NCBI GenBank assembly: GCA_010093995.1
Contig: ML992509.1
Span: forward strand, 790,178 to 854,177
Direction of reading: 5' to 3'
DNA length: 64,000 nt
Source of the DNA: Elsinoe ampelina
Lineage: Eukaryota
Positions 55,251 through 57,776 of the stretch are shown one piece after another (the first letter of the stretch is position 1; each line of letters begins with the position of its first letter). The translations under genes were made by a program, and so were the position numbers. The notes under the pieces were generated by a model, which saw only the letters and a list, made by a program, of their open reading frames with translations, ran no database searches and was not told the DNA's origin.

Positions 55251-55731
55251 AGTTGCGAGTGCTGGTGGTATTGCTGTCGGGAGTGTGAATGTTGGTGGAG
55301 GAGAGGTGAACTAAGCATGATGAGAGTGTAAATAGAATGCTTTCAGAGCGGCATATGTTTGCGACCTTAGGGACAATGCGCCGGGAGCAATTGTGGAATG
55401 TGAAATGTGACAATGAATGGACAATGCGACAATAATTGACAAAACCGTCACATCCCACGCGAGCTGCGGGTGCTTTCCGCTTTCGTCATTGACCCTTGGA
55501 CGTGGTGAGCTTCCCCGGATTTAGTTGAAGAAGCACAGACCTTTGCATATTGATGGATTGCATGTGAAGGATACCTAGTGGATGCATGCCAACGTGCTTT
55601 GATTGTCTTCTGGACACGTTACTGTCCTTGCATTACGGTCGTATGTCATGTCTATACCCCAGCAACATATGCTTTGTCAATCAACCACCACATCACATCT
55701 ACTGATCGACGAAACCTCGTTCCTTCCTGCT

Positions 55732-57776
55732 TCATGCTCCGTTCAATCCGATCTTCTTTACTCTCTTCGCGAGTTCACCCTCCCCATCAATACCAAAGTC
55801 ACTCCTCCGCTTTGCCACGCGTGGCCCTACTTCATGCAGAATAGCTCGCAAAGTGCTCCAACCTATATCGCAAACCAAAAACGGTACCAGTCAGTTTGTT
55901 CACATCTGCAGGATAGTTTGTAGAGTGGCCCAACCTGGCGATTGCTGTAGCGCCGCTCCAGCGCTGACATCCTTGTTGATTGCAACTTGACAAAGGGTAG
56001 AAAACTCGGTCTGCGTTGAGGCGGCATTAGCTGAGATCTTGGTATGGTCTCGATCGACGGGCAGGCTTACCTTGCTCAAGACATCCATGTTACGGATGAA
56101 ACTGAGGAGATGAAAGTCGGCGATCTTAGCAACCCCTTCTGGTCGGCTGAGATCGACCTTGTCCAACGCCTTCTTCAGGGATGTTGTTTCCTGTGCTTGA
56201 CCGATGACCGCTCTGTTCTCTACTGGGAATGCTGTGCTGGTGAAGACTGGCTTCGACTCTGTCGGGAATCCATGGGTGAGAGTGACAAGTAGATATTCGA
56301 CCGGGAACGATGGCTTCGCATTCTCTTGAACGTTCGCACCATACTCATTGATCTTTCTGTAGAATACTTCTGGGATGTAGCGTACTCGGCCGAGCTCATT
56401 CTCCTCGTCTTCGTCTTGCACGAGCATGACTGTAGGGTCTGCCGATGGTTCGATAATGTCGGCTCGTACCATCTCGACCGCTGAATCTGATGCCTGATAA
56501 GCTGTGACGGCAATCTGTCCTTCCTCATCGCCGCTGATGACACACGTGACAAAATGTGATCCAAACTTTCCGGTGTCGCTCCATTTGCTTGGTCTGGGGT
56601 ATCGTGCTTGGTATCGTGATGCAAAAATTACCTCAAGAGAAGAAAAGTAGAAGGAGTCTGCGTGTCTCTTGCAGATCACAGTGCCGTCACCAGCGCCTGC
56701 ATCGAGAAGATCGGTGAAGATGACGCCTACACGCTGTAGTCCACACTCCTGGGCAAGCTGATCAATTGCTTGCTCATTGTCCCACTCGTTGAGGGTCACA
56801 CCGTCCATCTCGTCGACTTGTGGAGGCTCATAGATGGCCTCAACAACGGCCTTGGTGCCGAGCGGGACCTCCGAGTATTCCTCGTACCGTCCATAGAGAA
56901 AGCCTATTCGTTGAGCGCCAGAAGTTCGCCAGAAGTCGAGTATCGTATTGATAAGTGCTGGTGAGGAGAACTCAACATGATCCACCATGCGGTACGGCTG
57001 AGGCTGGAGAGTGATAGCACTCGGCTGGCATTTTGTGCAGATGCCTTGTGGGAAAGGCTTGTGACCTGAAGGACAATCCGGTCGGACACGGTAGTATGGT
57101 TCGGTGAGAGGAGGCATGTAGGAGCTACCCGACTCATACTTGTTCTTTCCCTGGTTGAGCTTCCGGAGGTGAGCGTGATATGACAGATGCTTGATCTTCT
57201 TCTCCGCGAGGTATTCTGCATTATACGGCTCAATCGGCATGCAGTAGTCGCACATGCCCTTCGGTCCGTGTCGACACATCTTTTGATCTTTGGGTCTTGA
57301 AATCTTGCCATCCTTCTGATCTAGCCTGTCATCTACCGGTAGTTGCTTTACCGTTTCCCATGGATTCTTGATGATGCCCTGTGCTGCCGCAGACGGGATG
57401 GCAACGCTGGCGGCTTCTGAGGCGGCGACCGGATTTCCGTTGAGCCTAATCGCAGCTTCACTATGACCATTCGTTTGGGCAGCTTGTTGTTGGTAGTCGA
57501 GGAAGATCTGGGTGCCGTGTCTGGTCAAATTAGTTGCATGTAACAGATACCAGGTGGCCATACTCACGTCAGACCGAGTCGCTGGAAGGTGACACCCCTG
57601 AGAGCCTCTAGAGGACGTGAATCTCCGCCTTGCGGCTTCGGACTCATGGTCACTGAAGAGGGTATGACATCTGAGGGCAGCTTCTCAAGCACCTGCGGAA
57701 GGATAGAAGCGATGTCTGTGGTCGGCTCCAGAGTGAGTCGGAACTGGCCATTTCGGCTTTGGAATCGTAGTATCAT
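55732..57776 (-). CDS. NPL4: Npl4, cofactor of Cdc48-Ufd1; stop at 55900 (intron retained) or 55732 (intron spliced)
   Basis: [71 protein letters not shown] and [15 protein letters not shown]; introns ~57567-57522, 56070-56011 and optional 55934-55863. Confidence 0.96.

Follow-up and report, generated by a model that had tools for sequence, protein, structure and literature searches.

NPL4 of the fungus Elsinoe ampelina (Myriangiales, Dothideomycetidae) probably yields two selected C-termini of the Npl4 protein, by means of a third intron that can be retained and that itself encodes a protein helix and a stop codon. The gene lies on the minus strand of a 64,000-nucleotide (nt) stretch of contig ML992509.1, referred to here as the window, and all positions are those of the window. 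In the mechanism we propose, the donor of this 72-nt intron, G/GTTGGG (the slash marks the border between exon and intron), is built from Gly-Trp-Ala codons and is weak because its +3, +4 and +6 positions are off consensus, so that most transcripts would keep the intron and be translated to TGA 55902-55900, giving a protein of 589 amino acids (aa). When the intron is removed, exon 4 would complete the same Gly codon and bring its own copy of the helix, giving a protein of 621 aa whose basic, disordered tail of 32 residues (KRR-x12-KRVKK) would correspond to the ancestral Npl4 tail of Pezizomycotina. Both isoforms require the helix, and the splice site is upstream of it, which would be why the helix is present in two copies. 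A first-pass annotation of the sequence had already described two homologous alternative C-termini and the retainable intron; this observation is confirmed here, with its donor (GTTGGG, 55934), branch site (ACTGAC, 55895-55890), acceptor (AG, 55864-55863), intron length and both stops all correctly placed, and its overall interpretation is partly supported.

Reading frames, splice signals and selection at the end of NPL4

Exon 2 translates to a product with 100% identity to P0001, the annotated E. ampelina Npl4 (589 aa, with precomputed Pfam domains PF05020 and PF05021), and matches to the C. thermophilum (6chs, E = 6e-238) and yeast (6oa9, E = 5e-161) Npl4 proteins place it in the Npl4 family; by orthology, the E. 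ampelina protein would bind Ufd1 and Cdc48. The Gly codon at the donor of intron 3 is split G/GT, which corresponds to splicing in phase 1. Without splicing, the frame continues past exon 3 to the TGA in the intron, and this reading is exactly the end of P0001. With splicing, the exon 4 frame runs from 55860 downward, ends in ...KRR...KRVKK...NGA at TGA 55734-55732 and encodes the same 42 residues as the end of P0002, the 621-aa protein of E. batatas, which therefore ends exactly in the spliced reading. The two helix copies share 22/30 nt, and each can be aligned with the one GWATL.TIL helix that Npl4 has in other fungi, which shows that the duplication of the terminal segment is real and not a product of chance.

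Conservation of this arrangement was assessed in a metagenome scan of 80 NPL4 loci, 19 of which have the duplicated-helix design (group A). If the gene simply ended at TGA 55900, with the distal open reading frame (ORF) as a decaying tail relic in the 3' untranslated region (UTR) and the 72 nt never spliced, frame and signals would be expected to be lost, and the pattern of conservation makes such a relic improbable. AG/GTTGG is present at the first copy in 19/19 group-A loci as well as in the window, whereas AGGT occurs at the same position in 0/54 single-helix loci, in which the Gly codon is free (GGC in 29, GGA in 10, GGG in 8 and GGT in 7). The Pro and Gly codons that form this border (CCA-GGT) are thus fixed in the duplicated clade and free elsewhere, the signature of a splice donor in use. 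The GT is accompanied by a CTRAC branch site and by an AG that immediately precedes the second Gly-Trp in 18/19 group-A loci, so that the first helix copy is held within a GT-AG intron whose signals are kept in relatives, and the window likewise has a GT donor and a CTRAC branch 20-35 nt before the AG. The tail frame has remained open in 19/19 loci and ends in a LAKRVK-type motif. The distance from copy to copy, at least 70 and at most 203 nt, covers all three classes modulo 3 (a remainder of 0 in 4 sequences, of 1 in 9 and of 2 in 6, the 19 sequences being the window and the 18 loci other than L035), and hence the tail frame can be reached only by splicing at these sites. Judged by these signals, the 72-nt intron at 55934-55863 is real.

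Both ends are also under purifying selection, and the arrangement is kept across Dothideomycetidae. Pooled over five independent pairs, the uncorrected ratio of nonsynonymous to synonymous differences (pN/pS) in helix copy 1 was 0.08; helix copy 2 gave 0.41 and the tail 0.25, with tail values of 0.05-0.16 in the closest pairs, values that a relic would not be expected to show. A stop comes immediately after copy 1 in 19/19 sequences (window and 18 loci), with TAA, TAG and TGA all in use. The low ratios at both ends argue that both are translated and constrained, and by this measure the short end is more constrained than the long end.

Two other donors for the removal of this region were considered and rejected. 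The first, AT/GTRR after the last Met of copy 1 (used in the NCBI models P0121 and P0050), has G at +5 in 0/16 sequences, and no acceptor in the window keeps the tail frame from it; the second, GTGAAC (55904), would form a 41-nt intron with the same AG, which is too short and leads into a frame that terminates after 10 codons. The last residue of the short isoform is Met (window 55903-55905) in 18/19 sequences and Phe in L015, always with the stop next, and the letters ATGTRR at this end resemble a decayed donor. The features of the gene are collected in Table 1.

Table 1. Features of NPL4 in the window, with the evidence for each.
Feature	Position	Strand	Evidence
Exon 1, ATG at 57776-57774	57568..57776	-	RNA contigs X1 and X2 join 57568 to 57520
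Intron 1, 47 nt, donor GTGAGT, constitutively removed	57521..57567	-	Skipped in X1 and X2 contigs
Exon 2, 483 codons + 1 nt, Npl4 zinc-finger and MPN core	56071..57520	-	Identity to P0001; hits among solved structures of Npl4
Intron 2, 60 nt, donor GTAAGC, constitutively removed	56011..56070	-	Skipped in X1, X2, X12 and X6 contigs
Exon 3, ending ...CCA G, phase 1	55935..56010	-	CCA G the same in 18/19 related loci; TCA G in L023
Intron 3, retainable, 72 nt, weak donor GTTGGG at 55934, branch ACTGAC 55895-55890, acceptor AG 55864-55863	55863..55934	-	Signals in 18/19 related loci; retained in X1, X2 and X12
Helix copy 1, 10 residues, end of the short 589-aa isoform; Gly codon spans 55935-55933	55903..55932	-	pN/pS 0.08
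TGA stop of the short (intron-retained) isoform	55900..55902	-	Stop directly after copy 1 also in 18 related loci (L035 not tabulated)
Exon 4 (distal), coding only after splicing	55732..55862	-	Tail identical to that of P0002
Helix copy 2, in exon 4	55831..55860	-	Sequence reading
KRR, in exon 4	55804..55812	-	Sequence reading
KRVKK, in exon 4	55753..55767	-	Sequence reading
TGA stop of exon 4	55732..55734	-	Sequence reading
3' UTR	55601..55731	-	Contig ends at 55642 (X1), 55601 (X2) and 55668 (X12)

Transcripts and gene models

Four RNA runs were aligned as assembled contigs, X1 (depth 697), X2, X12 and X6, of which X1, X2 and X12 come from three studies; assembled contigs drop minor transcript variants. 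Introns 1 or 2 are skipped in all four, and the contigs thus represent processed transcripts. The X1, X2 and X12 contigs remove intron 2 (X1 and X2 also intron 1) yet run through the 72-nt intron 3, so that the message coding for 589 aa is the dominant assembled form, and three mRNA-like group-A metagenome contigs (L023, L032 and L035) also retain intron 3. Retention is the default form of this intron. The distal exon is the 3' UTR of the dominant, intron-retaining message: the transcripts do not end before ~55800, as the first refuting condition of the first-pass annotation would require, but pass the distal exon to about 55601-55668, contig ends that cannot fix the poly(A) site. Within the 3' UTR there is an indel polymorphism (window 55683-55701), in which 18 nt are present in the window and X1 and left out in the X2 (17 + 1 nt) and X12 (10 + 8 nt) contigs. 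X6, a relative at 95-99%, has no cover at 55837-55926, a hole at a depth of about 3 that is without meaning.

These contigs make it very improbable that the 72 nt form an ordinary constitutive intron, with the 621-aa protein as sole product and with the short models and retained contigs reflecting unprocessed RNA or mis-annotation. Although three NCBI models (P0002, P0005 and P0006) are spliced, and splicing gives a product collinear with the Npl4 proteins of other Pezizomycotina, introns 1 and 2 are gone from the very contigs that keep the 72 nt, in X1 at a depth of 697, and helix copy 1 with its invariant stop is the most conserved part of the region, which is unlike an ordinary intron.

Several observations weigh against production of the long form. 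No joint of 55935 to 55862, and hence no spliced transcript, was seen in the X1, X2 and X12 contigs, from which minor variants are dropped. Two word-based (weak) protein searches, one with P0002 residues 560-621 (6 hits) and one with a profile of nine long ends for longer proteins (59 hits), returned the long end of the duplicated-helix clade only in predicted NCBI gene models and in no raw ORF of a transcript-like contig. The tail-less end was present in 8/8 mRNA-like metagenome loci (L018, L021, L023, L032, L035, L038, L071 and L072) and in five transcript-like raw ORFs (P0010, P0026, P0033, P0097 and P0108); no transcript-like NPL4 assembly among those examined, in either clade, encodes the tail, and the long form may accordingly be rare. 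Lastly, the mRNA-like locus L035 (1904-2090) shows the duplicated design with its tail ORF intact, yet no AG there would bring the tail back into frame, and it may represent a lineage that lost the splice or a 1-nt assembly error. The retention of the 72 nt in every RNA contig aligned, the missing transcript-derived long form, the weakness of GTTGGG and the lack of a usable acceptor in L035 are also what a tail relic in the 3' UTR would predict, against the conserved frame, signals and tail described above. Because the contigs drop minor variants, a spliced minority could have gone unseen in them; from the conserved splice signals we infer that a minority of NPL4 transcripts is spliced at intron 3. 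A balanced or regulated switch between two isoforms, such as the first-pass annotation had envisaged, is not borne out, as no spliced transcript appears in the contigs of the three RNA studies and retention is the default.

Public gene models contain both ends. The short end is modelled in P0001 (E. ampelina, 589 aa), P0003, P0007 and P0009, the long end in P0002 (E. batatas, 621 aa), P0005 and P0006, and Aureobasidium subglaciale has both a short and a long model (P0040 and P0042). The models of Elsinoe sister species disagree (589-590 aa vs 619-621 aa) because each captures one isoform. Some NCBI models place their joints elsewhere: in P0121 and P0050 helix 1 runs directly on into the tail, P0048 leaves out both helices and P0063 takes a donor further upstream. 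The joints of these four models are unsupported by signals conserved across loci.

Possible origin of intron 3 and putative tail splicing in other Pezizomycotina

Among named proteins, the short end or the duplicated design was found in Myriangiales, Dothideales and Mycosphaerellales and also in genera such as Cladosporium, for which, as for similar genera, we assume the order placement. A single helix running straight into ...SGERPPKR...QLAKR[VF]KG.SL was found in Botryosphaeriales, Pleosporales, lichen-forming fungi, Aspergillus and Penicillium, and in 40 metagenome loci a single helix is continuous with the tail. The statement in the first-pass annotation that Npl4 proteins of other filamentous fungi end in a LAKR-type tail holds in these sequences. 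Since the outgroups have a single helix, the duplicated design is a derived trait of Dothideomycetidae, and in this comparison the spliced product restores the ancestral order of the Pezizomycotina Npl4 protein.

Whether intron 3 arose by a tandem duplication starting at AG/GT is, in our estimate, an even call. The features expected under the Rogers model are present, with AGGT at both borders, an intron whose beginning is homologous to that of the exon after it, and intron-free outgroups with a single copy. Birth of introns by tandem or segmental duplication of an exon segment containing AGGT is described in a published account (PMC3265369), and the NPL4 intron resembles the introns described there in its AG/GT borders, in the homology of its start to the next exon, in its intron-free outgroups and in the restoration of ancestral order by splicing; it differs in that the intron copy of NPL4 stayed coding and gained a stop, so that retention makes a second conserved isoform. 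A duplication larger than the helix has left no trace, and this counts against the proposed origin: the remaining intron shows no similarity to exon 4 beyond the helix (shuffle p 0.2-1.0 in 19/19 sequences), as is expected for an old event, which means that the duplication unit cannot be followed further and that the origin stays conjectural. The RNA-dependent RNA polymerase (RdRp) of potato is said to be a case of intron birth by duplication. Across loci the two NPL4 helix copies share 14-22 of 30 nt. The copies of E. ampelina and E. batatas are the closest to one another (copy 2 at window 55831-55860, 22/30 nt, against 14-21/30 in other loci), and gene conversion between the Elsinoe copies may have occurred.

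In the single-helix clade, the stretch that encodes the tail looks like an exitron. We compared 32 distinct sequences from the 40 single-helix loci (within L024-L080). The Gly-Glu codons are GGTGAG in 32/32 of these, the Ala-Lys codons are GCTAAG in 30/32 and AAG encodes the final Lys of KRxK in 28/32, so that synonymous positions are held fixed at these signals; removal of GT..AAG brings a TAG in frame one to two codons later in 28/32. The mRNA-like locus L018 (1868-1930) is without a 128-nt GT..AG stretch of the genomic locus L028 (5880-6007), with 25/26 nt matching after the joint, and L021 (1870-1930) is similar to L018 but less clean. The clade thus combines a hidden GT, a branch site and an AG with transcripts that are without the tail-coding stretch.

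Tailed and tail-less Npl4 thus seem to be produced in both clades, with the logic of splicing reversed between them. In the classes with the exitron, the tail-coding stretch would be spliced out via GGT-GAG and GCTAAG..AAG, with a frame-shifted TAG following at once; in the ancestor of Dothideomycetidae, an AG/GT tandem duplication would have given rise to an intron coding for the terminal helix and a stop, retention giving the short form and splicing the tail. Taken together, Npl4 of Pezizomycotina may exist in tailed and tail-less forms, the latter dominant, with an exitron in most classes that was replaced in the ancestor of Dothideomycetidae by a retainable intron born of duplication; we hold this joint account tentatively, at slightly worse than even chances. 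No study of exitrons in fungi was evident by title among the matches listed.

The basic tail and the significance of two Npl4 forms

The two protein ends differ in what follows the helix. The whole of yeast Npl4 (580 aa) can be aligned with P0002 residues 1-591, and the yeast protein consequently stops just after the helix, at the same place as the E. ampelina short isoform, whereas C. thermophilum Npl4 (659 aa), whose residues 585-594 align with helix copy 1, continues into a tail. The region past the helix is thus the lineage-variable part of the family. Human NPLOC4 (608-aa chain, 11ve) has ~44 residues past the aligned core, which we take to be its NZF zinc finger, where Pezizomycotina have a basic disordered tail instead. 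In the AlphaFold2 model of P0002, which is poor overall (mean predicted local distance difference test score, pLDDT, of 51 with a 28-row alignment) and of which only the C-terminal 130 residues were used, the helix at 578-589 is confident (block pLDDT 87-92) and residues 596-621 fall below 50. The short isoform is thus a complete, yeast-like Npl4, and the long isoform adds a tail predicted to be disordered.

The basic tail is present on the distal end only, and the first-pass annotation had likened it to a bipartite nuclear localisation signal (NLS). We applied the rule [KR][KR]-x10-12-(at least three K/R in five), coded by us after the Robbins-Dingwall consensus. The window tail fits this rule with a spacer of 12, as do 13/16 distinct group-A tails; K[KR]x[KR] occurs in 16/16. 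It is possible that the tail serves nuclear import and so supplies the Cdc48-Ufd1-Npl4 complex with NLSs, though we would put this at somewhat below an even chance. There is a precedent that makes an NLS borne by Npl4 plausible: in a study of human cells, the NLS-bearing cofactors VCF1/2 promote nuclear import of p97, and large cargoes are argued to need many NLSs (PMC10541173). As described there, VCF1/2 (FAM104) associate with p97-UFD1-NPL4, so that in both cases a bound cofactor would give the p97/Cdc48 complex extra NLSs; VCF1/2 differ in being a separate family described from animals (PMC10541173), whereas the putative fungal signal would be on Npl4 itself and dosed by splicing.

Other features of the tail count against an import signal. 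The reading is based on a motif rule, 3/16 group-A tails miss the bipartite spacing, and outside the clade the basic clusters are much further apart, from about 16 to >50 residues. Both isoforms might instead be made with the tail serving as a docking motif (for Cdc48, Ufd1, a UBX adaptor or the proteasome) or as a regulated degron, which we regard as unlikely, if the most serious of the alternatives. In its favour, beyond the unconserved spacing, the most conserved part of the tail is the terminal Q-L-A-K-R-[VF]-K-G-x-S-L, which is more than an NLS needs, although in the single-helix clade part of this conservation may reflect branch and acceptor signals at the RNA level. The fit of most group-A tails to the bipartite rule, the K[KR]x[KR] motif in all of them, the predicted disorder of the tail and the cofactor-borne import of human p97 speak for the import signal. 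A partitioning of the complex by isoform between the nucleus and endoplasmic reticulum (ER)-associated degradation, as the first-pass annotation suggested, would be pure conjecture.

Freitag and colleagues reportedly found in 2012 that fungal enzymes are dual-targeted through alternative 3' splicing or stop-codon read-through, either of which adds a C-terminal peroxisomal signal. NPL4 resembles these enzymes in that a single gene has two C-termini, conserved among fungi, with a short targeting-type motif on only one of them; it differs in that retention is the default, the motif is NLS-like and not a type 1 signal for peroxisomal targeting (PTS1), with a putative role, and the last structural helix is duplicated to serve both forms. 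A second parallel is SKI7/HBS1, for which ancient fungal alternative splicing, rare and deeply conserved, is reported to give two functional proteins (PMC3597508). SKI7 and HBS1 have distinct N-terminal parts and have been resolved by gene duplication in some lineages, whereas the NPL4 forms differ in the 32-residue tail only, and no NPL4 case resolved by gene duplication was seen among the compared sequences. We found no literature linking Npl4 to intron retention or alternative splicing in fungi in a search whose coverage did not extend to subscription journals.

Deeply conserved alternative splicing that changes the protein is reported to be rare in fungi (PMC3597508), and NPL4, if our reading of its third intron is correct, would be a further case. 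It would also be a natural example of an intron possibly born by duplication that kept its coding function. If two unrelated splice architectures do maintain the same pair of isoforms in Pezizomycotina, the ratio of tailed to tail-less Npl4 would itself be a selected trait, and a plausible purpose would be the dosing of nuclear versus cytoplasmic Cdc48-Ufd1-Npl4. The complex works both at the ER and in the cytosol and on chromatin, and a hard-wired splicing decision that puts a tail resembling an import signal on Npl4 or leaves it off would, if true, be a simple mechanism for dosing the complex between these sites.

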